The notes: generated by a model from the sequence alone, not told the origin. Positions 47,343 through 63,585 are shown, counted from the stretch's first letter. The stretch is DNA of 64,000 bases from an uncultured Eubacteriales bacterium (GCA_964457415.1 CAYWFB010000001.1:215-64214); one strand, 5' to 3'. A program made the numbers and translations.

Positions 47343-47371
47343 TTGACAAATCAAAAATTTCCCTCTACAAT
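47343..47371 (+). promoter_or_regulatory. near-consensus sigma-A promoter of the toxin-immunity pair
   Basis: TTGACA (47343-47348), 17-nt spacer, TACAAT (47366-47371). Confidence 0.65.
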
Positions 47372-47414
47372 AATTTTCAGAACATTTGTTCTGCTACTTG
47401 AATGGAGGAATTTA

Positions 47415-47879
47415 ATGAATATAAATGAATGGAAAATTGTAGAGCCACCATTACATGAGAACTGTCGTTGTAAAATCGAACCAATGGAAGCCATTTTTGT
47501 AGGCGGAGCAACAAAAAATGGTGAAGCCGGTGCTGACTTTTGGTTGAAACATTTCAATAAATTACCGGATTATTATGTGACAGAAAGTGAAGCTGTTTCT
47601 ATGGGGTGGAGAAGAGGTAAATCACCTGTGAAATATTTGCCAGGAAAAATGCTAACAATGGGAATATATAATAATTCTAATGAACACTTACCACAAGCAG
47701 AAGGTCGTATATGGTACGAAGCGGATATAAATTATTATGAAGGCAAAAGAAATAAGCATAGGATTCTGTGGTCAAATGATGGATTAATATTTGTAACATA
47801 CGACCATTATGCGACTTTTTATGAAATTATAGGAGAAAATTATGGAGAAGAAAAAAATCATTACTTTAGACTTAACTGA
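47415..47879 (+). CDS. barnase-family ribonuclease toxin preceded by the terminal motif of a phage MuF (head-morphogenesis) domain
   Basis: PPLHENCRCKI (MuF C-terminal signature), then LPDYYVTESEAVSMGW...GRIWYEADINYYEGKRNKHRILWSNDGLIFVTYDHYATFYEI. This is collinear with barnase LPDNYITKSEAQALGW...GRTWREADINY...RILYSSDWLIYKTTDHYQTF. ATG 47415 follows GGAGG. Confidence 0.8.
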   Translation: MNINEWKIVEPPLHENCRCKIEPMEAIFVGGATKNGEAGADFWLKHFNKLPDYYVTESEAVSMGWRRGKSPVKYLPGKMLTMGIYNNSNEHLPQAEGRIWYEADINYYEGKRNKHRILWSNDGLIFVTYDHYATFYEIIGENYGEEKNHYFRLN

Positions 47880-48404: not shown

Positions 48405-49451
48405 ATGAGAACTTTTAACTACTCCAAAATTAAAGAGCAAAAATGGGATTCTGACATTCTCGGCTTGATTGCTGCTATTTATAAAGAGGCAGGAAAGCAG
48501 GAATTGTATCTCAAGCAAAAGCCCGAAAAACTTGAAAAGCTTGTTGAGATTGCAAAGGTGCAAAGTACAGAGGCTTCTAACGCCATTGAAGGTATCGTTA
48601 CAACAAGCACTCGTGTTAGGCAGTTAGTTGAAGAAAAGACTACTCCCAGAACTCGTGACGAGCAAGAAATCGCAGGTTATCGTGATGTATTGAATATAAT
48701 TCATGAAAGTTTTGATGCAATTCCGTTGACTCAGAATTATATACTTCAGCTTCACAAAATGTTATACAGCCATATGAACAACCCAATGGCAGGTAAAACC
48801 AAGAGTGTGCAGAATTATATAAGTTCCACATATCCTGATGGTCATACTGAAACGCTATTCACTCCACTTTCACCTTTTGAAACACCTGAAGCACTTGATA
48901 AAATTTGTGAGGAGTTCAACAGAGTTATCGGCAATATGGAAGTTGAGCCATTGATTGCAATTCCGATTTTCATTCACGACTTCCTTTGCATCCATCCATT
49001 TAACGATGGCAATGGTAGAATGAGTCGTCTGCTTACCACATTACTCCTTTACAGAAGTGGTTTTCATGTTGGTAAGTATATTTCACTTGAAGCTAAAATA
49101 GCAAAAAATAAAGACCTTTACTATGATGCACTCAGCAAGGCACAAATTGGTTGGCACGAAGGGAATGAAGATAATGTTCCTTTCATCAAATACCTTCTTG
49201 GCACAATTCTTGCAGCATACAAGGATTTTGAAGAACGATTTAAGTTGATTGAGGAAAAACTGCCTGCAATTGAAATTGTGAGAAAAGCAACTCAGATTAA
49301 AATCGGGCGTTTTACCAAGCAGGATATTCGCGAACTCTGTCCTTCACTCAGTATAAGCACTCTCGAAGGTGCATTACGCAAAATGGTTGAATCCGGCGAA
49401 TTAAAGCGTGAAGGTAATGGTAAAAATACCTACTATTATCGATTGAGATAA
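48405..49451 (+). CDS. Fic-family protein (AMPylase-type) with N-terminal inhibitory helix motif and C-terminal wHTH-like region
   Basis: HPFNDGNGRMSRLL (HxFx[D/E]GNGRxxR). SNAIEG fits the [S/T]xxxE[G/N] auto-inhibition motif. AAGGAGGT RBS. Confidence 0.88.
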   Translation: MRTFNYSKIKEQKWDSDILGLIAAIYKEAGKQELYLKQKPEKLEKLVEIAKVQSTEASNAIEGIVTTSTRVRQLVEEKTTPRTRDEQEIAGYRDVLNIIHESFDAIPLTQNYILQLHKMLYSHMNNPMAGKTKSVQNYISSTYPDGHTETLFTPLSPFETPEALDKICEEFNRVIGNMEVEPLIAIPIFIHDFLCIHPFNDGNGRMSRLLTTLLLYRSGFHVGKYISLEAKIAKNKDLYYDALSKAQIGWHEGNEDNVPFIKYLLGTILAAYKDFEERFKLIEEKLPAIEIVRKATQIKIGRFTKQDIRELCPSLSISTLEGALRKMVESGELKREGNGKNTYYYRLR

Positions 49452-53766: not shown

Positions 53767-54531
53767 ATGAACGGTTTATTTGTACGCGAAATAAGTATAA
53801 AATGCGATATACCACGCGGGAATTACATCAACAATCTTCCCGTGGTGGATTGGCTTAAAAGCAACTCTTTGGAATTCAACAAACCTGTGACTTTTATTGT
53901 AGGCGAAAACGGAATTGGCAAGTCAACACTTATTGAGGGGCTTGCGGTTGCTTTGGGCTTCAATGCCGAGGGCGGAAGTAAGAATTTCAACTTTTCAACC
54001 GAGAATTCACACTCAGATTTGCACGAATATTTAAGTGTCCGCAGAGGATTAAAGCAACCTCGTGACGGATTTTTCTTGCGTGCCGAGAGCTTTTACAATG
54101 TGGCATCCAACATTGACCAGATGGACAGAATGCCTGCCGCCGCTCCGCCTGTAATCGACAGCTACGGCGGTGTGTCACTCCACGCGCAATCCCATGGCGA
54201 AAGCTTTATCGCTCTCACCGAAAACCGATTTGGCGGAAACGGACTTTATATCCTTGACGAGCCTGAAGCCGCACTCTCTCCAATGCGAATCATGAGGCTT
54301 ATGTGCAATATCGACCACCTTGTAAAGCAAGGCTCACAGTTTATAATCTCAACCCATTCTCCAATCCTGATGACCTTCCCCGACGCCGATGTTTACGAAA
54401 TAACTCACGAGGGAATAAACCTCGTCCCCTACTCCCAAACCGAGCATTTCCAAATCACAAAACAATTCCTCAACAACCCCGAACGAATGCATAAATATTT
54501 GTTTGAGGAGCAAATACCTATTTTAAAATAA
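53767..54531 (+). CDS. stand-alone ABC/SMC-like AAA ATPase (COG3910-type)
   Basis: Walker A GENGIGKST, signature-like SHGESF, Walker B LYILDEPEAALSP, H-loop STHSPIL. Confidence 0.85.
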   Translation: MNGLFVREISIKCDIPRGNYINNLPVVDWLKSNSLEFNKPVTFIVGENGIGKSTLIEGLAVALGFNAEGGSKNFNFSTENSHSDLHEYLSVRRGLKQPRDGFFLRAESFYNVASNIDQMDRMPAAAPPVIDSYGGVSLHAQSHGESFIALTENRFGGNGLYILDEPEAALSPMRIMRLMCNIDHLVKQGSQFIISTHSPILMTFPDADVYEITHEGINLVPYSQTEHFQITKQFLNNPERMHKYLFEEQIPILK

Positions 54532-54540
54532 GAGTATAAA

Positions 54541-54585
54541 AAAGCCTATGAAGTTTGAAACTCAATCTTACCTCATAGGCTTTTC
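54541..54585. terminator. bidirectional terminator between the ATPase and the MBL operon
   Basis: aaagcctatgaag ... cctcataggcttt, 12/13 stem. Confidence 0.7.
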
Positions 54586-54635
54586 ACTGTTTGTCTGCAG
54601 TTAATTTTGGATAGTAATTTTATTATTCTCTCCCT

Positions 54636-55478
54636 TCAATAATCAGCCCTTCCCCAATCTACATTACAGTGTCCATCTTCAATATCAAAGGTTATTGTAC
54701 CTTCATTTCTTGTTGTCAGAACATACCTGTAATTACCATCCAATTTTGCTCCTCTGCCTTTATAAAGGCGTGCTGTATCGTTCTGTGTTTCATGTTCAAT
54801 AGATTTATCTGATACAACGGTAAGATATGGATTAACACAATTGAAAAAATCCTGACAAAACTCGCCGGTTCTTCCATGATGAGGCGCCAATAAAACTGTT
54901 GCATTTTTTACTTTTGAGCAAATATCTTCATGATTTTCATCCATCATTCTTTGAAGAATTGATTTCGGATTATCTCCTGTTAAAACGAATTTATATCTAT
55001 ATGCATTAACTACTACTATGCTTGAAAAAGTATTTAAATCTTGCTTGGTGGTCCACTGTGATTTAGGTAATATAAACTCAAAAGAGACGCCCCCATTTGC
55101 CGTTTTTTCTGTTGGCAATTCATTCATATTTACGGGCTGATTATATGAAGCATTCATCTTGTTAGCGATGTCTGCTATATTTCTATGTATATATGTATTT
55201 TGTGTCGGTATAATGTTGAATGCTTCTGTGGGTCTATTTAGAACTCTTGGGTGGAGTTCTGCATATAATTTAGGCAAATCATAAATATGGTCTTCGTGAG
55301 GGTGTGTGATAATTAGCTCATCAACAGCACCACTATAACCGTTAAAATATTTTCTTTTAATATGTTCTACAATACTTTTATCAGTTTTGCTACCGACATC
55401 TACCAATATATGTTTATTATTTGGTGTAATAATATGACAACAACTACCATGGTCTACATCATAAAAAATTATTTTCAT
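54636..55478 (-). CDS. ComEC/Rec2-type MBL-fold metallo-hydrolase (280 aa)
   Basis: FYDVDHGSCCHI...LVDVG, ITHPHEDHIYDL (HxHxDH), LTGD, LLAPHHGR. Confidence 0.8.
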   Translation of the reverse strand: MKIIFYDVDHGSCCHIITPNNKHILVDVGSKTDKSIVEHIKRKYFNGYSGAVDELIITHPHEDHIYDLPKLYAELHPRVLNRPTEAFNIIPTQNTYIHRNIADIANKMNASYNQPVNMNELPTEKTANGGVSFEFILPKSQWTTKQDLNTFSSIVVVNAYRYKFVLTGDNPKSILQRMMDENHEDICSKVKNATVLLAPHHGRTGEFCQDFFNCVNPYLTVVSDKSIEHETQNDTARLYKGRGAKLDGNYRYVLTTRNEGTITFDIEDGHCNVDWGRADY

Positions 55479-55529
55479 AAAACTATACTCCTTTAAATAT
55501 TAATAAGTAAACATACCTTTCATAATTTT

Positions 55530-57010
55530 CTATATACTTCCTATTGGCACATCTATTCTATCTTGTGCTACACAAACTCCATTTTTCACAAGATAGCATT
55601 CTACAAAGTGCTCACCATAAAAATCTGTGTGTTCTTTGTGATGTGTGTTACCGAGCTTAATCTGCCCTCGAATACAGTCTCTTTCTTCTGCAACTACTCC
55701 CACATTTCTGACTTTCCAATAGATATCGTATGGGCACGGACAAGTTGTGCTTTCTATGAAAAAGTCTAGTGATTTATGCCTTCTTAAATATCCCCTGCTT
55801 TTAAGAAAATCAATTAAAAAGAAATCTCTCCAACCATTTTGTGATACTTTACAATTTATTCTTAATCTATATTGTTCTCTTACAGGAAACATATCTGTTA
55901 TAAACTGCTCCGTATTTCTAAAAGAAGGACGACAATAACTACTCTTTTCAACAACGGTGCTATCTTCGTTAGCAAATTCGTTTAATGTAATGCCATTATC
56001 ATCAACAGTAAATACAATTGGAGAAGGCTTGCTATCTTTCTTCCGTTTATGTTCCATCGTCACCAAAAACGATACATCTGATGCAGTGTATTTTTTATAT
56101 GCATGTTTAGCAATCATGTGTGGCGGAGAAGTATCTTCCGTTATCTCCTTACAAGAAGCAACCATATAGCCATTTTCTTGAGCTTGTTCTAATAACCACT
56201 GTACATTTTCAGTTGGTGTGATAATTCTAGTATCTTTTTCATCTTTTTCGTTTAACCCAGTATGGCTACAATGATGTGGTATATCATAAATATCCCATAC
56301 AAGTTTATCTTCATTTTTATTCTCTTTTGTTATGTCAACTATCTTATCTGAAACTGCATATTGAGTGTCACCCGTAATTAAAATGTTCGCTTCGTTATCT
56401 CCATAATACAAACGGACTTGCATCACAATTGATGGGTCGTTCTTGTCTTGCACTTCTTCGCTATCATCTGAAAAAGGAGCATGGACAAAAATCTCTATTT
56501 CATCTTCAGCTCCAGATATTGATAATGTATCTCCTGCATGGACAATCAAATGTTTAACATCATCATACTTTATTTCTTCTTTATCAATCCATTTTTTAAT
56601 TCTTCAGGTTCTCCAAATATTCTCACACCATAGCCCGACTTAAATCTATGTCTTGCTTCTTGTCTTATTATTTTCGCATCAGACCCATTCTCTAAGTTTG
56701 TATCTAATAAGAATGCAGCAGATATCCACAATTCTTCTATCTTCGCTCTTGAATCTGACTGATATTCTTTTGCATAATCCAAGTAAAAGAATTTGCTGGC
56801 ACCTTTTGTGTGGTCTTCATGTGCATGCGAAAACATAACAACCTGAAATTCTTGGATTTCTGATAAATCTTTTTTTATATCATAACGCTCATCATCTTCT
56901 GCGCCTTCATACACATCAGCAAAATCAAATAGTAAGCATTTCCCATTATCTAGTTCCAACAAACTTGTTTCTGCGTTACCAATTGGGAAAAATGTCAACT
57001 TATGTGCCAT
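55530..57010 (-). pseudogene. MBL-fold metallo-hydrolase fused to an AGS-C-like C-terminal domain, split by a 1-nt frameshift in an A6/T6 run (track ORFs 56570-57010 and 55530-56549)
   Basis: The N-terminal ORF has FFPIGNAETSLL and FSHAHEDHTKG. The C-terminal ORF continues the same fold (ILITGD, IPHHCSH). The two frames overlap around T6 at 56592-56597. One extra A gives ...EPEELKKWIDKEEIKYDDVKHLIVHAGD... Confidence 0.75.
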
Positions 57011-57025
57011 AATTTACTCCTCCTA

Positions 57026-57559
57026 TTAACTTTTTTCCATATAGTTTTTAATTCGTTTATTTATGTAATTTGTTTGCTTTTTATAACTAACTACAAAAAC
57101 TATCATTAACACTAAAAAAGCCACTACAACTAACCAATCATTACTAATTTTATTAATTAAAATATCATGTATTTTCCAATCATATAACTTTGCAATCAGT
57201 AATGAAAAACCAATAGAAATTGTTGTTCTGTACAAATTATTTGTTTCATTTAACACTTCAATAAATGGTTCGGCTTTTGATGCCGCAATGTAATCCTTGT
57301 AGTCACTTTTTTTAATAAACGGACCGATTGCCTTTATTTTTACTTTTGTTAAAAGAGGTTCTATAATTAGTGAACCTATTCTACTTATTATCATTCCAAC
57401 AAAATAATATATAAAAAGATTTTCTAACAAGCTGCCATTAGCAATTGTAAAACGAGTAGTTTTATCAAGAATATAGCAAAACGCTATTCCGGGCAACAAA
57501 TTATTGAATATGTTATATGATGAAATCTTTTCAGATACACTTTTAACAATATCTTCCAT
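57026..57559 (-). CDS. small integral membrane protein (about 4 TM segments)
   Basis: 177 aa. Hydrophobic segments IFNNLLPGIAFCYIL, LFIYYFVGMIISRIGSLII, TTISIGFSLLIAKLY and WLVVVAFLVLMIVFVVSY. Gaps of 15 and 18 nt to the flanking MBL genes. Confidence 0.6.
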   Translation of the reverse strand: MEDIVKSVSEKISSYNIFNNLLPGIAFCYILDKTTRFTIANGSLLENLFIYYFVGMIISRIGSLIIEPLLTKVKIKAIGPFIKKSDYKDYIAASKAEPFIEVLNETNNLYRTTISIGFSLLIAKLYDWKIHDILINKISNDWLVVVAFLVLMIVFVVSYKKQTNYINKRIKNYMEKS

Positions 57560-57577
57560 ACAAAAACCTCCGCGTTT

Positions 57578-58714
57578 TTAATAATTAACGACTAAGTGCA
57601 CTGCACTTCCACAATCTTCTGTCACAATAAATGGATAACGATTATTAAACATCAAATTTTTAATTACTTTAGAATGTGGATGACGATATTTATTACTCCT
57701 ACCTACAGAAATAACAAAAAATGAATTTAGTGTTGAAAAACAACTATTATAATTATGGCTAGAACCATGATGTGGAATTTGCAAACAACCTATTTGATTC
57801 CATTGTTTCAAATACATATCTTTTAAATCCTCAAACTGTTGTTTTTTTGAAGCATCATAATCACCCGTATATAAACAACCGGAAGGTTTAATACAATATT
57901 TACAATAATGTCTGCAAAAGTTATTAGGCTGTGCAACCTGATATCCACCGTGTTGGATTGGACCTGAAAAAAGTGTCATCGAGTTCGTGTTATGGTCTCC
58001 GTCAATTTCTTGATAAGCTTTTTTTATTTTTTTCTTATTATCATTATTTTCATTCCATAAATTTTGTAAATTTCTCAATCCTTCAAATTCAAATCCAAAA
58101 GCAATTTCTAATTTTTCTTTTAATAATTCTGTTCTTTCCTTGTTCTTAAAATTAAATGGAATATAACACCAATCCTTTAACAATCCTATTTTTGTTCTTT
58201 CAATAACGCCATTCACATTTTCTCCAGAATAAATAGGTTTAGCACGCAACTGATTGGAGACGTCATATCTAACTTCCTCTCCATAAGGAATAATTGGGAA
58301 TAACATCGGCCGCGACTCGCCCAAATCGATGCTGTCTAATGCATGCCTTGGATTATCAACAAACAAATTCACAAAAGAATCTTTTTTAACCCCATTTATA
58401 AGATTACTAACTAACACAATATTCTTTTCATCTTCATTCATCAAGGGAAAGAAAATATTTTTAACATTACAATATTTCAACAAATATTTTAATCCGTTGA
58501 TATGGTCGTTATGCAAATGAGAAATAAAAACAGCATGAATAATTTCATCCTTATCAAATATTGCTCTAATTTCTGCTTCCACCCATTTAACATCCGTAGA
58601 CGAACCACAATCGTAAACAATATTAACCTTTTTATTATTAGATAACAGACCATCAAATTGTTCGCAATAAAAGGCACCTTGTCCGACAGGCAAAAAACTT
58701 CTTATCATTCTCAT
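57578..58714 (-). CDS. ComEC/Rec2-type MBL-fold metallo-hydrolase (378 aa) with inserted Cys cluster
   Basis: FLPVGQGAFY, FISHLHNDHINGL, IPHHGSSHN, and the insert CRHYCKYCIKPSGC. Start at M7 of the track ORF (GAAGGTG RBS). Confidence 0.8.
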   Translation of the reverse strand: MRMIRSFLPVGQGAFYCEQFDGLLSNNKKVNIVYDCGSSTDVKWVEAEIRAIFDKDEIIHAVFISHLHNDHINGLKYLLKYCNVKNIFFPLMNEDEKNIVLVSNLINGVKKDSFVNLFVDNPRHALDSIDLGESRPMLFPIIPYGEEVRYDVSNQLRAKPIYSGENVNGVIERTKIGLLKDWCYIPFNFKNKERTELLKEKLEIAFGFEFEGLRNLQNLWNENNDNKKKIKKAYQEIDGDHNTNSMTLFSGPIQHGGYQVAQPNNFCRHYCKYCIKPSGCLYTGDYDASKKQQFEDLKDMYLKQWNQIGCLQIPHHGSSHNYNSCFSTLNSFFVISVGRSNKYRHPHSKVIKNLMFNNRYPFIVTEDCGSAVHLVVNY

Positions 58715-58928
58715 AGTACAACACCTTCTCATATTCTATAAATTTATAAAATCCTAATATAATATAAATCGAAATTAAGATTCCTTTTGTGACAAAATAT
58801 TACAAACTTTTTCATCATAAAGCAAACAAAACACTTTACCTTTACGTTCAAATTACATTTATAAACAAATTGGTGCTTACCATTGTTTATAGCGGTAGAA
58901 TTACTGCTATACCAAGTGGATATAAAAA

Positions 58929-58961
58929 TTAAAGGTGTTAGCCAATGGTTAACACCTTTAA
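58929..58961 (-). terminator. long hairpin downstream of the helicase gene
   Basis: ttaaaggtgtta gccaatgg(t) taacacctttaa, followed on the minus strand by tttttata. Confidence 0.6.
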
Positions 58962-59140
58962 TTCATTGATTCAATTATAAGTCTTGTGCTGAATTTGAAG
59001 TCTTGCAGAAAACTTTCCCTTTCCGCGATACTGATAAGGTCTTCATTACAGATAAACATTTTCAAGCATTTCTATATATTTGTACTACTTTCGCAGCACA
59101 AATGTATATCACACATTTTTGCATAAGTTTAGCTAATCTC

Positions 59141-61615
59141 TCAACTTTTAATATTTCTTATATACCTGCAACCATAGTTTCTGTAATTTGAACACCCAAA
59201 AAACTCACCGTATGGACCAGAACGTTTTACTAATCGACCACCACACAAAGGACATTCATATTGTTCTTTCTTCATACTATCACCATACCTCAACTGCAGT
59301 TCTTTTACAAAATCAGATTCCTGCTTATCAACAGTCACCAAAATTGCTTTTTCTTTAGCCCTCGTCATTGCTACATAAAACAATCGGCGTTCCTCAGCAA
59401 ATGGATACTGGTCACAGTTATCAAGAAGCAATTCAAGAATTGCCGCCTCCTGAACTTTACTCGGAAATCCCATTCGAGATTTTTTATTATTAATAATAAA
59501 CACGTAATCTGCCTGCAACCCCTTAGATTTATGTGCTGTAATAAAGTTCATTTTTAGGTCATGACGATTTTTATAAACAACATCAATCAAGCCACTAATG
59601 TTATTATATTTGCAATCAAACAAACCATTTTCACTAAGTAATTTACTATCAAAAGTGTACCGTCCAATAAAGAATACTGAACTCCCTTTGGGTAAATCAT
59701 CTAATCTTGAGGCCATAAACTCTATAGCAAATTTATCTGTATAACCAGTTACCTGACCTAATACAAAACTTTTTGAATCAATATTTCCTTTGATTGATTT
59801 TTTTATCTGAATGGGATTTTGCATTATAAAATTGCCACTTATTTCAATAAGTTGCTGACTGAAACGATATGTAGTTTCTATTTTGCTTAATTCCGTTGCA
59901 CCCCAATATTTTTCAAAGTTCAGTATATATCCTATATCACTACCTGCAAAACGATATATGCTCTGCCAGTCGTCTCCAACACAGAACAAATCAAAATCTT
60001 GTGAATCACGCAATGCTTTAAGTAATGAATACCTCGCCTTTGAAATATCCTGGTATTCATCGACAATTACACATTTATATGGACTGTAGTATTTCTTTTC
60101 ATTGACATATTGCGTTGCAAGATTAATCATATCATTAAAATCAATCTCGTTATTTTGTTTTAAATAATCACAATAAGCATTGAAAATAGGCTCAATTAAA
60201 TTAAGTATTGTAAAATTGCTTTGGGCGTTGCTATTACCAACATTTAATTGTCTAACAGTACTAATCGTATATCCATTACTTTTAATAAGATTTATCACTG
60301 TCTCAAATAATTCAATAATACCATCAAGAATCGAAGGCTCCGTTGCAAGTTGAGACCATAATTCCTGTGCAGATTTCGGGTTTAATTCAACACCATTTTC
60401 TTTGAGTTTTTTCTTAAGATTATCTAGCAAAGTCCCCTCAAACTTTTCATAAGCATAACACTCTATCATTGTCGTGTTATTTGCCTCATGTAATTCTCTC
60501 TTCCAATTCATTGACTCTTGATAAACCTGAGTTGCGGTCTTACCTTTTGAGCCGTTGAAATATGCTGGAACCTCACCATTTTTGTTTATACCAAAATATT
60601 CAATATAAATATTATACTTTGGAAGGTGAAAATCTGGTTGATATTGCGTATTCTCTTTTGTGCGAGTATCTATCCCATAAGGGCATTCATAAATATACTC
60701 CACTCCGTTTTGAGCAAGAAAATTTGCAATATCCATTTCACCATAACTTTTTACTATTTCATTACTTACGGTCGTAGGTGGATTCAGTTTTAAGTAATCT
60801 TCGTATTCTGCACGTGTCTGAAAGTCAAATTCGGATTTTGCAACTACTCGATTATAGAGCAAATATAAGCTCAAAAGTTGAAGATATGCATCTGACTCCA
60901 TTAAATCAGATATTTTTTCTTTTATGAACTTACGCAAATTAAGTTGAGTTATCTTAGGTGCAATACCATTAAATTCCGTAATAATATTCAGTCCCAATTT
61001 GTGAAATGTAGAAGCTGCAATTTCATATCCTGTTTCTTTATTTATTCTCTGACACATTTCACTTGCAGAAGCGTTTGTGAAAGATAAGACAAGAATATCT
61101 TCTGGCTTATATTGCTTTGTTTTCAATAAAAATTTAATTTTTCCAACAACAGTAGTTGTTTTACCAGTTCCTGCCCCGGCGATTACCAAATGGTTATGTG
61201 CATCTTTCAGGATGCATGTCATTTGTTGCTTATCCAACCTGTGTCCTTCAACATCACCTATGAGCGTATACGCATTTTGAATTTTTAATTCTGCAATTCG
61301 ATTATTGTGAGTTTGTATTCGATGTTTTAATTGTTTTAGTGCATCTTGAATGGCTATCCTTTGAGTTAAAAAAGAATTGAAATTATTTGCCTTTTTAATT
61401 GTTTTTATATTAAATAATGAAATTTCATTTAACAATTCCGAATATTGCAATTGCCATTCTTCAGCTTTAGAGGGTTCAATAAAGTCATCATTATTAAACA
61501 AGCTTGAAATTTCTTTTAAAGCAAAAGAAATCCGTGCGATATAACTATCACACAAATCATTTCGTTCTTTTATTTTTGCTTTGTGTCGTTCAATCAGTTT
61601 TTTAATAAAACCCAT
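59141..61615 (-). CDS. helicase IV/UvrD-family SF1 helicase with nuclease-like insert and C-terminal topoisomerase-type zinc ribbon
   Basis: EGHRLDKQQ...VIAGAGTGKTTT, VIVDEYQD, CVGDDWQSIYRFAGS, TAHKSKGLQADYV, FYVAMTRAKE. Insert SYGEMDIANFLAQNGVEYIYE...YQPDFHL..YNIYIEYFG. C-terminal CPLCGG..(16)..CSNY..YGC. Confidence 0.85.
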   Translation of the reverse strand: MGFIKKLIERHKAKIKERNDLCDSYIARISFALKEISSLFNNDDFIEPSKAEEWQLQYSELLNEISLFNIKTIKKANNFNSFLTQRIAIQDALKQLKHRIQTHNNRIAELKIQNAYTLIGDVEGHRLDKQQMTCILKDAHNHLVIAGAGTGKTTTVVGKIKFLLKTKQYKPEDILVLSFTNASASEMCQRINKETGYEIAASTFHKLGLNIITEFNGIAPKITQLNLRKFIKEKISDLMESDAYLQLLSLYLLYNRVVAKSEFDFQTRAEYEDYLKLNPPTTVSNEIVKSYGEMDIANFLAQNGVEYIYECPYGIDTRTKENTQYQPDFHLPKYNIYIEYFGINKNGEVPAYFNGSKGKTATQVYQESMNWKRELHEANNTTMIECYAYEKFEGTLLDNLKKKLKENGVELNPKSAQELWSQLATEPSILDGIIELFETVINLIKSNGYTISTVRQLNVGNSNAQSNFTILNLIEPIFNAYCDYLKQNNEIDFNDMINLATQYVNEKKYYSPYKCVIVDEYQDISKARYSLLKALRDSQDFDLFCVGDDWQSIYRFAGSDIGYILNFEKYWGATELSKIETTYRFSQQLIEISGNFIMQNPIQIKKSIKGNIDSKSFVLGQVTGYTDKFAIEFMASRLDDLPKGSSVFFIGRYTFDSKLLSENGLFDCKYNNISGLIDVVYKNRHDLKMNFITAHKSKGLQADYVFIINNKKSRMGFPSKVQEAAILELLLDNCDQYPFAEERRLFYVAMTRAKEKAILVTVDKQESDFVKELQLRYGDSMKKEQYECPLCGGRLVKRSGPYGEFFGCSNYRNYGCRYIRNIKS

Positions 61616-61637
61616 AAGTGCTCCAAAATCTAATTAA

Positions 61638-62051
61638 TTATATTAATATCCCATCACAATGGTCGATTTCGTGCTGAATTATTTGTGCTGTCCACCCGGT
61701 GAAAGTTTTGATTTGGATTTGGAATTCAGCTGTCTGCCACTGCACTTTTATGCTCTTGAAACGATTACACTTACGTGGGCTACCAAGTAATGAAAGGCAT
61801 CCCTCTTCTGTTTCATAAGGCTCTGATTTCTTAATGATTTCAGGATTGAACATAGTCATATATGTACCATCATTATCAAAACAGATAATGCGTTTATGAA
61901 CACCAATCATATTAGCAGCCATACCAACACAACCTTCAGCATTAGCAATAAGTGTGTCAAGCAAATCCTGTGCCACCTGCAAATCTTCAATTGTAGCCTT
62001 CTCCGATTTCATTGCCAACAAAATCGGGTCATGAATTACTTCTTTAATCAT
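61638..62051 (-). CDS. def: short (137-aa) peptide deformylase paralog
   Basis: Motifs CVGMAANMIG (variant of GxGxAAxQ with Met in place of Gln), EEGCLS and QHEIDH. 22-nt gap to the helicase gene. Confidence 0.8.
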   Translation of the reverse strand: MIKEVIHDPILLAMKSEKATIEDLQVAQDLLDTLIANAEGCVGMAANMIGVHKRIICFDNDGTYMTMFNPEIIKKSEPYETEEGCLSLLGSPRKCNRFKSIKVQWQTAEFQIQIKTFTGWTAQIIQHEIDHCDGILI

Positions 62052-62181
62052 TGTTACTCCTTGTTTATCTTATGCAACAGATTTTTGCATAAGAGTCTAT
62101 GACTATATTTTTATTATAATTAGGCACAAAAACGAACTTTTTGATATCTTTATGTTGTTGGCGCAATCAAAGTGTTGCAAT

Positions 62182-63090
62182 TTATTTTTTCTTAAAACTT
62201 TCCCTTTTTAATGTTCTTTCATCTATAATCCTACGCTTTACAGCTTCACAGATACTACTAAGGTCTGGCATTAAACGAAACGTATTGTATCCTAATGTGT
62301 CAAGATACTGTATAAGTTCATCACGCAAATCCTTATGAATTCTAATCACATGAGAGTTGTTTTGAAGGATGCGCAAATGCTCATCTTTATCTAATGTGTA
62401 AGGGAACATAAATAATCCTTGTTGCATAATAATTCTCTGATTTGATTGGTTCGGATCAATAAATAAAATTGCATGATTCTTGATTTTTTTCTCTTTGTCA
62501 TTAGAATTTTCAATTGTATCAGTAAACCCATCAAGAGACCATATACTCCTATGTAATTTATTATCTCCAAACAAGTCAGTTACACTATCAATACATTGAC
62601 TTGCTTTTTTTGACAGTGAATCTGTTTTCGTCCATTTCATGTTATGTATTTCATCATTCAAAGGAATAGACGAAACACATAAATTTTCTTTTAAAGAAGC
62701 ATATCTTACATAATAATATGTTTTATCATCTTTTTCTTTATATTTGGGTCCTTTAGGCATATATAATGCAAAAGAAAGGGCAATAAACGGATTTCGCGTG
62801 AAGTCGAGCAATCTCGTAGGCAAGCCAAAATGCTGAGCATATGACATGAAGTCTATGGGCGTATTTGCGCGAAAATAATTGCTACCATACTTTTCAAAAT
62901 CATGAAGCAACTCATTTTCAACATCTGCATAGTCTTTATCACGAATAACATTAGGAAACAACTCATCTTGCTTACCGTATCCTCTAAATACATAATCGCC
63001 ATTACGAGCTAAAGCATTTAGTCTATCTATTACACCTTCAATACCGTCTTGTGTCTCTATAGTATTCAAATCAATATTATCTACCTTCAT
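62182..63090 (-). CDS. FRG-domain protein
   Basis: YVFRGYGKQDELFPN...YAQHFGLPTRLLDFTRNPFIALSFAL is the FRG signature. Start at M12 of the track ORF (GGGGGGA RBS). Confidence 0.8.
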   Translation of the reverse strand: MKVDNIDLNTIETQDGIEGVIDRLNALARNGDYVFRGYGKQDELFPNVIRDKDYADVENELLHDFEKYGSNYFRANTPIDFMSYAQHFGLPTRLLDFTRNPFIALSFALYMPKGPKYKEKDDKTYYYVRYASLKENLCVSSIPLNDEIHNMKWTKTDSLSKKASQCIDSVTDLFGDNKLHRSIWSLDGFTDTIENSNDKEKKIKNHAILFIDPNQSNQRIIMQQGLFMFPYTLDKDEHLRILQNNSHVIRIHKDLRDELIQYLDTLGYNTFRLMPDLSSICEAVKRRIIDERTLKRESFKKK

Positions 63091-63198
63091 CTTTAATCCC
63101 CCCGTATTTTTGCATAAAAGCATATCAATCAGTTCCTACACTCCGCAAATCATTTTTACCAAATATCTTGTATCAAAGCAATAAATAAAACCTTTTTA

Positions 63199-63585
63199 TC
63201 ATTGTGCACCTTTAATAATCTTTTCAAGGATTTCTTTATCTGCTGGGCAAAAGTTGTATTTTGGGCTTTCTGCAGGAGTAATCCACTTAATATCGTTGTT
63301 TTCAAGCTTTTGCGGCGCACTTTCAGCAATTATTGCGTTGAACAATGTTAAGTGCACTGTGACGTCTGGATACTCATGAACCACGTCCATAAATACATCG
63401 GCAACAGAAAGCGTTATTGACAATTCTTCCTGACACTCGCGAACGAGTGCCTGTTCTTTTGTTTCACCAGGTTCGACCTTACCACCGACAAATTCCCAAA
63501 GTAAACCACGTGCTTTATGTACAGGTCGTTGACAAATCATAAACTTATCATTATCCCATATTAATGCTGCAACTACTTCCACCAT
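63199..63585 (-). CDS. NUDIX hydrolase (MutT/8-oxo-dGTPase-like)
   Basis: Nudix box GGKVEPGETKEQALVRECQEELSI. Confidence 0.85.
   Translation of the reverse strand: MVEVVAALIWDNDKFMICQRPVHKARGLLWEFVGGKVEPGETKEQALVRECQEELSITLSVADVFMDVVHEYPDVTVHLTLFNAIIAESAPQKLENNDIKWITPAESPKYNFCPADKEILEKIIKGAQ

Follow-up and report, generated by a model that had tools for sequence, protein, structure and literature searches.

A 6A-type MBL hydrolase fused to an AGS-C domain in a candidate defence cluster, and its frameshifted allele in an uncultured Eubacteriales bacterium

What is an AGS-C domain, a module of nucleotide cyclases, doing at the end of a metallo-beta-lactamase (MBL) hydrolase, and why is the gene that encodes it broken? 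Both questions are raised by one locus (55530-57010, minus strand) in a 64,000-nt stretch of DNA from an uncultured Eubacteriales bacterium (GCA_964457415.1, CAYWFB010000001.1:215-64214). The whole stretch is called the window here, and positions are counted from its first letter. At a probability of roughly 0.6, we read the locus as part of a defence cluster in which an MBL of the 6A-MBL family carries AGS-C in place of the C-terminal tail and the E2-E1-JAB partner of its relatives, the window allele being a recent null. The MBL family, its E2-E1-JAB partnership and the AGS-C domain are already known. The interest of the locus lies in its architecture; the window copy itself looks like an ordinary dead allele, one more case of the quick loss of defence genes.

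A split gene for an MBL core and an AGS-C tail

Two minus-strand open reading frames (ORFs) cover the locus. The 5' reading frame (56570-57010, 146 aa) has an ATG start 8 nt downstream of a Shine-Dalgarno-like AGGAGG, contains an HxHxDH motif and ends at a premature stop. The listed 3' ORF (55530-56549, 339 aa) starts from a TTG that is an artefact of ORF listing. Up to the interdomain linker, the 3' reading frame (55920-56603) holds the rest of the MBL core, with H177, TGD215 and HH246-247, and a disordered linker, residues 348-363. The frames meet at an A6 tract (56592-56597), where the coding strand reads GAA GAA TTA AAA AAT GG; intact alleles have A7 (TTA AAA AAA TGG). Insertion of one A gave a single 493-aa product that reads ...EPEELKKWIDKEEIKYDDVKHLIVHAGD... 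/ ...EPEELKKWIDKEE... across the junction. An intact allele of this kind is known from a second metagenome: protein P0001, encoded at locus L001, has 493 aa and A7 at the tract, and is identical to the repaired window protein at 491 of 493 residues. Both ORFs belong to a single gene that the deletion of one A from A7 has divided, and what the window holds is a frameshifted pseudogene allele of a 6A-type MBL hydrolase fused to AGS-C (55530-57010). This is as the initial annotation had it, which took the ORFs for halves of one MBL-fold gene, meeting at a homopolymer and fused by one extra A.

The resemblance of the tail to AGS-C noted in the initial annotation was borne out by profile and by structure. 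Residues 365-490 (55542-55919, minus strand) matched the Pfam family PF18134 (AGS_C) at an E of 1.9e-44, with 151 bits against a cut-off of 26.7, over profile positions 1-128 of 129. When the intact allele was modelled with AlphaFold2 from a 108-sequence alignment (mean predicted local distance difference test score 87.7), the result showed the MBL core, the linker and a beta-rich C-terminal domain (residues 383-488). In a Foldseek comparison of this model with the PDB, the tail matched a known AGS-C structure, the Ig-like AGS-C domain of EcPycC (9ard_A; E 7.2e-4, template-modelling score 0.60, root-mean-square deviation 4.5). A sequence search of PDB chains with the tail and the MBL core returned nothing useful, and the fold search alone gave matches. 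The PADLOC "Cyclase" models, built for the CD-NTases of CBASS (cyclic-oligonucleotide-based anti-phage signalling system), aligned only residues ~346-491, to their last ~147 profile positions. No SMODS or cyclase catalytic domain was matched by Pfam or PADLOC in the N-terminal part of the protein, and a clean AGS-C domain hidden Markov model (HMM) found no second AGS-C gene in the whole window. The earlier statement that the window contains no cyclase or CD-NTase holds for the ORFs of 44-64 kb, among which there was none; the 1-44 kb part was profile-scanned in part.

AGS-C was originally proposed as a sensor of the nucleotides produced by its fused cyclase, and the initial annotation took it for a sensor domain. 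It is now regarded as an Ig-like domain of ~18 kDa that tunes phage specificity: it is found on ~40% of type I CBASS CD-NTases and in no other CBASS type, and it changes which phages get restricted (10.1101/2023.05.21.541620). Nucleotide sensing is not an established role of AGS-C, so the "ligand" of a ligand-gated enzyme need not mean a nucleotide.

Turning to the MBL core, H62, H64, D66, H67, H177, D215, H246 and H247 are invariant in an alignment of 57 homologues, and the window copy retains all of them; H62-H67, which form the HxHxDH metal-binding motif, lie at 56810-56827 on the minus strand. General MBL profiles are weak on the N-terminus (Pfam Lactamase_B, 7.8e-4). The best PDB match of the fusion model by Foldseek was to ComEC, namely to its beta-lactamase-like nuclease domain (9ic4; E 2.6e-13, template-modelling score 0.71 over the target), with which the core has the HxHxDH / H / D / HH metal site in common. 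ComEC differs in sequence (16% identity) and in being a competence DNA channel with no functional link to defence. By profile, the links to MBL nucleases are weak matches to RTasMBL, LmuA and Avs1a, and nothing informative or Apyc1-like came out of BFVD, a library of viral structures. The ComEC-like fold and these weak profile links favour an MBL domain that is probably a nuclease effector. The ligand-gated nuclease put forward in the initial annotation is thus a reasonable working model in its catalytic half, given the invariant metal motifs and the ComEC match, and is loosened as to the nature of the ligand.

AGS-C as an alternative to the tail and E2-E1-JAB partner of 6A-MBL

The MBL had been left unplaced. 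By homology, its N-terminal 345 residues are assigned to the MBL family of the 6A-MBL system. A search of 5.8 billion proteins returned nine 90%-identity clusters of fused proteins (482-493 aa) together with hundreds of ~360-aa homologues without AGS-C, at E values down to 1e-161. With one genome taken per species, six fused loci were found in gut metagenome-assembled genomes (MAGs) of Acutalibacteraceae and other Clostridia, and ~20 unfused loci in Bacillota, Thermodesulfobacteriota, Bacteroidota, Brocadiaceae and others. Among the proteins compared, the unfused cores closest to the window allele share 73-74% identity with it; against other fused proteins the figure rises to 76% at most.

The unfused MBLs (~364 aa) have a characteristic end: 101 of 105 finish in ...SAPRAG plus 0-4 residues, a Gly-exposing, ubiquitin-like tail. 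Immediately downstream of the MBL, an E2-E1-JAB gene was found in all 18 unfused loci with enough sequence; its product (~720-770 aa) carries Prok-E2_A, ThiF (E1) and Prok-JAB domains. The pair corresponds to operon type 6a of Iyer, Burroughs and Aravind 2006 (PMC1779556), for which later papers use the names "6A-MBL" or "MBL pathway". PMC13276650 and 10.1101/2025.09.30.679545 name 6A-MBL, cite it as an experimentally confirmed anti-phage system and credit the anti-phage activity to van den Berg et al. 2024.

Neither feature was found with the fusions. The PRAG tail occurs in 0 of 10 fused proteins, and an HMM made from 15 E2-E1-JAB proteins had no match in the window and none in the 14 fused loci. 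Fused and unfused sequences part right after a common "GITL" motif at residue ~343, beyond which the fused proteins have the linker and AGS-C instead. AGS-C is therefore mutually exclusive with the SAPRAG tail and E2-E1-JAB, and as both are absent from the fusions, it replaces the conjugation tail and its enzyme. In the MBL family, the metal motifs, the location in a defence island, and the transmembrane (TM) protein and MBL paralogues next door, the fused loci resemble 6A-MBL.

We next asked where the AGS-C domain came from. The window's domain shares 55-73% identity with CBASS CD-NTases, in the form of C-terminal fragments or full-length proteins (PADLOC PDLC00796, PDLC00778), and on this comparison their AGS-C is its closest relative; a homologue search with the tail only returned nothing longer than short fragments. 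Of 1.84 billion cluster representatives, searched exhaustively, 790 carry AGS-C. Among the best 150 of these, two were MBL fusions, P0009 (of the window's cluster) and the distant P0360, while nine other proteins of at least 470 aa and one typical 427-aa match were all SMODS/DncV-type CD-NTases. By this count the fusion is rare. Standard annotation does not see the fusion, because the Pfam MBL models fall below threshold and databases list "AGS_C only".

The intact fused alleles, P0001-P0009 and P0360, fall in three places (P0001-7, P0008/9 and P0360) in neighbour-joining trees, computed without support values, of both AGS-C and the MBL core, and tail-bearing MBLs surround them in the core tree. 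The identity of P0360, 46% in the core and 38% in AGS-C, makes at least two independent fusions very likely; the fusion appears to have arisen two or three times. Repeated grafting of AGS-C onto a non-cyclase argues against the sensing of its own cyclase's nucleotides. That the graft sits exactly at the site of the relatives' ubiquitin-like tail suggests a portable regulatory or phage-sensing module, equivalent to E1-E2-JAB priming.

A parallel exists among cyclases. AGS-C marks one clade of Pycsar (pyrimidine cyclase system for anti-phage resistance), and E2-like proteins serve another, Pycsar-like clade (10.64898/2026.08.12.744502). The AGS-C-bearing CBASS CD-NTases and Pycsar cyclases resemble the fusion in the C-terminal Ig-like domain on a flexible linker, in the either/or relation to E1-E2/JAB and in the small TM protein that is often paired with them. 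They differ in the enzyme: here it is an MBL-fold hydrolase rather than a Pol-beta-fold or class III nucleotide cyclase, it lacks any SMODS or cyclase domain, and its partners lack a known signal-receptor domain. Since the MBL family shows the same either/or pattern as CBASS and Pycsar, the simplest account is one in which either AGS-C or E2-E1-JAB serves as the link between infection and the activation of the attached enzyme. The fusion would give 6A-MBL a simpler, single-polypeptide variant with sensing and catalysis physically linked, which makes it an attractive experimental handle.

Nature of the frameshift

A sequencing error, the inactivation of a costly gene and an on/off switch were the options that the initial annotation left standing for the homopolymer. 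To us, the A6 allele looks like a genuine and recent loss of function by gene decay, and not like programmed switching. Within the gene, the window differs from L001 (run SRR14307663) by one A, one synonymous change and two substitutions, P217Q (56361-56363) and L221S (56349-56351; both minus strand). Both substitutions are specific to the window and lie just after the TGD motif, in the helix that directly follows the metal ligand D215. Residue 217 is Pro in 42 of 57 homologues and never Gln, and residue 221 is Leu or Ile in all 57 and never Ser. The synonymous and non-synonymous counts against L001 are too few to show relaxed selection, and the intact neighbour genes have ratios similar to that of the fusion gene, so the argument rests on which residues changed. 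Decay of the same architecture is also seen elsewhere: an Acutalibacteraceae MAG (JAZQVR010000008.1; L008, 6612-9482) holds an independent MBL-AGS-C pseudogene with two in-frame nonsense codons, next to an upstream MBL gene that is also cut short.

No consensus error is commoner than a miscounted homopolymer, and the sole frame-breaking lesion here is a single base, as expected if the true genome had A7 and an intact gene. However, a Logan contig from run SRR14307646 (L034), an independent assembly, matches the window at every position of 8164 bp (8.2 kb), A6 included, and the lesion is thus not an artefact of one assembler. SRR14307646 may be the MAG's own source run, and if both assemblies come from one run they could share a consensus error. 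Ten further ORF pairs of the window that lie close together or overlap turned out to be complete genes, and homopolymer errors are thus not widespread in this assembly; the same gene also has the two unusual substitutions. We therefore consider a miscalled tract quite improbable.

The second possibility is a phase-variable switch: through slippage between A6 and A7, a fraction of the cells would shut off an expensive defence gene in a reversible manner. Contingency switching is known to act on defence genes, and both lengths occur in nature: A6 in the window and in L034 (SRR14307646), and A7 in L001, from a run with a nearby accession (SRR14307663). Yet the tract has only 6-7 bases, in a window with 120 A/T runs of at least 6 and 26 of at least 7. 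The A7 form is confined to the closest alleles (L001, L033 and L036), in which it is incidental to a Lys-Lys codon pair; 8 of 11 orthologous loci have no homopolymer there (AAA GAT or similar), and the tract is therefore not maintained. Elsewhere in the gene, at 56870-56876, another A7 run is unbroken. With P217Q and L221S on the A6 allele, a restored A7 may not restore function. Moreover, A6 and A7 are carried by strains 2.4% apart across the locus, and so are not variants within one clone. On this evidence a switch is a poor explanation that we would give little weight.

Finally, the A6 allele could still be expressed by -1 ribosomal frameshifting on A_AAA_AAT or by transcriptional slippage. 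The 0-frame TTA AAA AAT does hold an X_XXY_YYZ heptamer, and the required shift is -1. Folding of the RNA downstream of the slip site revealed no stimulatory structure (z-score +1.04), on which account programmed frameshifting was dropped. Near-identical alleles are in frame with A7, and a six-base run is a poor slippage substrate. Recoding is accordingly an explanation to which we attach almost no credence. Gene decay thus accounts best for the short, unmaintained tract, for the presence of A6 in an independent assembly and for the two substitutions.

Neighbouring genes and a possible mode of action

The fusion gene is the third of four same-strand genes spaced 15-51 nt apart. The first encodes an MBL paralogue of 384 aa (MBL384; 57578-58732, minus strand; Lactamase_B 2.4e-8, with PADLOC matches to LmuA, PDC-M48B and RTasMBL). 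It is followed by the gene for a small membrane protein of 177 aa with at least two TM segments (57026-57559, minus strand; PDC-M48A, PDLC04670 1e-56), 15 nt upstream of the fusion gene. The last gene encodes an MBL paralogue of 280 aa (MBL280; 54636-55478, minus strand; PDC-M48B, PDLC04675 5.5e-38). The TM protein and MBL280 thus correspond to the pair that makes up PDC-M48, an untested two-gene PADLOC candidate; unlike that pair, their genes here flank MBL-AGS-C and are joined by a third MBL, of 384 aa. Elsewhere, PDC-M48 pairs adjoin canonical 6A-MBL genes. No relevant paper on PDC-M48 was present in the literature searched. A scan of the cluster for promoters and terminators gave no excess of sites over shuffled sequence.

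A small TM protein stands beside every fused gene with enough flank. L001 has the same four genes as the window. The order is MBL379 or MBL303, a four-TM protein of ~228 aa and the fusion in L002-L008; TM protein and fusion in L031; fusion, MBL280 and TM protein in L033 and L036; and fusion and a 188-aa TM protein in L037. These TM proteins form at least three families, unrelated or very distant. Comparison of the two main ones by hhalign gave no relationship (probability 0.2%), and they were therefore treated as separate. The same families occur beside canonical 6A-MBL genes (L009-L024). What is constant is thus a 6A-type MBL with a small membrane protein, to which MBL paralogues are often added.

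One of these families, of four-TM proteins of ~225 aa, lies just upstream of the 6A-type MBL in L009-L016 and L031 (for instance L011, 7306-8001). It has the motifs YENSNWYKIY...CRDL...NRFVNTVIA.D and no Pfam or PADLOC match, and is tightly linked to tail-bearing and AGS-C-bearing MBLs alike. Upstream of the 6A-type MBL in two other loci (L025, 7312-7974; L026, 3059-3721) there is a soluble 220-aa protein and not a TM protein; by eye it resembles a LexA/S24-type repressor. An unfused 6A-type MBL of Clostridiales UBA4821 (L020, 7956-9354) is split into ORFs of 153 aa and 106 aa, and its E2-E1-JAB is down to ~218 aa, so that the canonical system, too, has a decayed copy.

The TM partner bears on whether the MBL is an effector at all. 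Rather than cutting nucleic acid, the MBL could handle a nucleotide-like messenger, with the TM protein as the effector and AGS-C as a nucleotide sensor. AGS-C and E1-E2-JAB are otherwise found only on signal producers (CD-NTases and PycC), the small TM neighbour is constant, as in CBASS with TM effectors and in Pycsar, and the neighbouring MBL paralogues have weak precomputed matches to the cyclic-nucleotide phosphodiesterase Apyc1. The fusion protein, in contrast, has no Apyc1 match, its best structural match being the nuclease domain of ComEC, and the viral structure library contained nothing Apyc1-like. Neither the window nor 13 of 14 related loci have a cyclase linked to the fusion; the exception, L002, has a separate Pycsar-like pair 4-8 kb away. 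To our knowledge, no MBL enzyme synthesises a messenger. We consider this signalling scheme unlikely, while the invariable presence of a TM partner and a Corbett-lab text that describes the MBL as a "signaling enzyme" leave room for some signalling role. A broader generalisation strikes us as doubtful. In it, AGS-C and E2-E1-JAB would be interchangeable, enzyme-agnostic sensing or priming modules, MBL hydrolases would join CD-NTases and PycC as a third, unrelated class of enzymes that use either one, and the 6A-MBL pathway would have a "type I / type II" split of its own; in its strongest form, the MBL would not be a terminal nuclease but would generate or process a cyclase-free messenger, with the small membrane protein as effector.

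We favour the effector scheme, which would run as follows. Canonical family members may, by analogy with Cap2/Cap3 of type II CBASS, have their tail trimmed by the E2-E1-JAB partner and be conjugated by it to a target. The fusion would have taken its AGS-C from a type I CBASS CD-NTase, to serve as an infection-sensing or regulatory module that probably recognises a phage-derived cue. Recognition would switch on the MBL domain, which is ComEC-like and probably nucleolytic, and the neighbouring membrane protein and MBL paralogues may act as co-effectors. The one-base deletion would truncate the window protein after residue 146, on an allele with two radical substitutions beside the predicted active site. 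Next to the observed domain identities, families, exclusivity and lesion, the substrate of the MBL, the cue of AGS-C and the role of the TM protein are parts of this scheme that we infer.

Several points weigh against the effector scheme and the decay reading. The AGS-C-fused MBLs are known here from sequences and models, and the nuclease assignment derives from fold similarity at 16% identity to ComEC. The Corbett-lab wording would place the MBL upstream of an effector rather than make it the effector itself. The trees carry no support values, the substitution counts are small, and a consensus error shared by the two assemblies would leave the gene intact. As to novelty, the initial annotation knew of no such fusion, and no paper in the searchable literature links AGS-C to this MBL or describes its exclusivity with the tail and E2-E1-JAB or its recurrent origin, three key papers lying beyond that search.

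The cluster lies in a low-GC island (53767-63585; 29-35% GC against ~41% elsewhere in the window). A sister strain (L035, 1-11540; Logan SRR27235322) has the same island, with the Pep_deformylase, UvrD and ATPase flanks and a GmrSD, and its cluster consists of MBL385, TM182 and MBL302 but lacks AGS-C; the fusion gene and MBL280 thus behave as a swappable cassette. Most of the divergence from L001, to which the window is otherwise ~99.5% identical, is concentrated in 57250-58000 (the 3' part of MBL384 and the 5' part of the TM gene), with ~104 of 130 differences. The changes affect 26 synonymous and 36 non-synonymous codons in MBL384, and 17 and 6 in the TM gene. The stretch looks like a patch of recombination or diversifying selection.

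Further defence-type genes were found around some of the clusters. The Pycsar-like pair of L002 (1404-3609; PycTM and a 561-aa protein), upstream of an intact MBL-AGS-C cluster, looks like co-location in a defence island rather than a conserved link. The island of the window also encodes an AAA_21/AAA_15 ATPase (53767-54531, plus strand) and, on the minus strand, a UvrD-like helicase with a Top1-type zinc ribbon that is GajB/RTasHel-like (59141-61615), a short peptide deformylase of 137 aa (61638-62051), an FRG-domain protein with a PDC-S15 match (62182-63123) and a NUDIX protein (63199-63585). Just outside the island lie genes for a barnase-type ribonuclease-domain protein (47343-47879) and a Fic-domain protein (48405-49451), both of which may be toxin-like.

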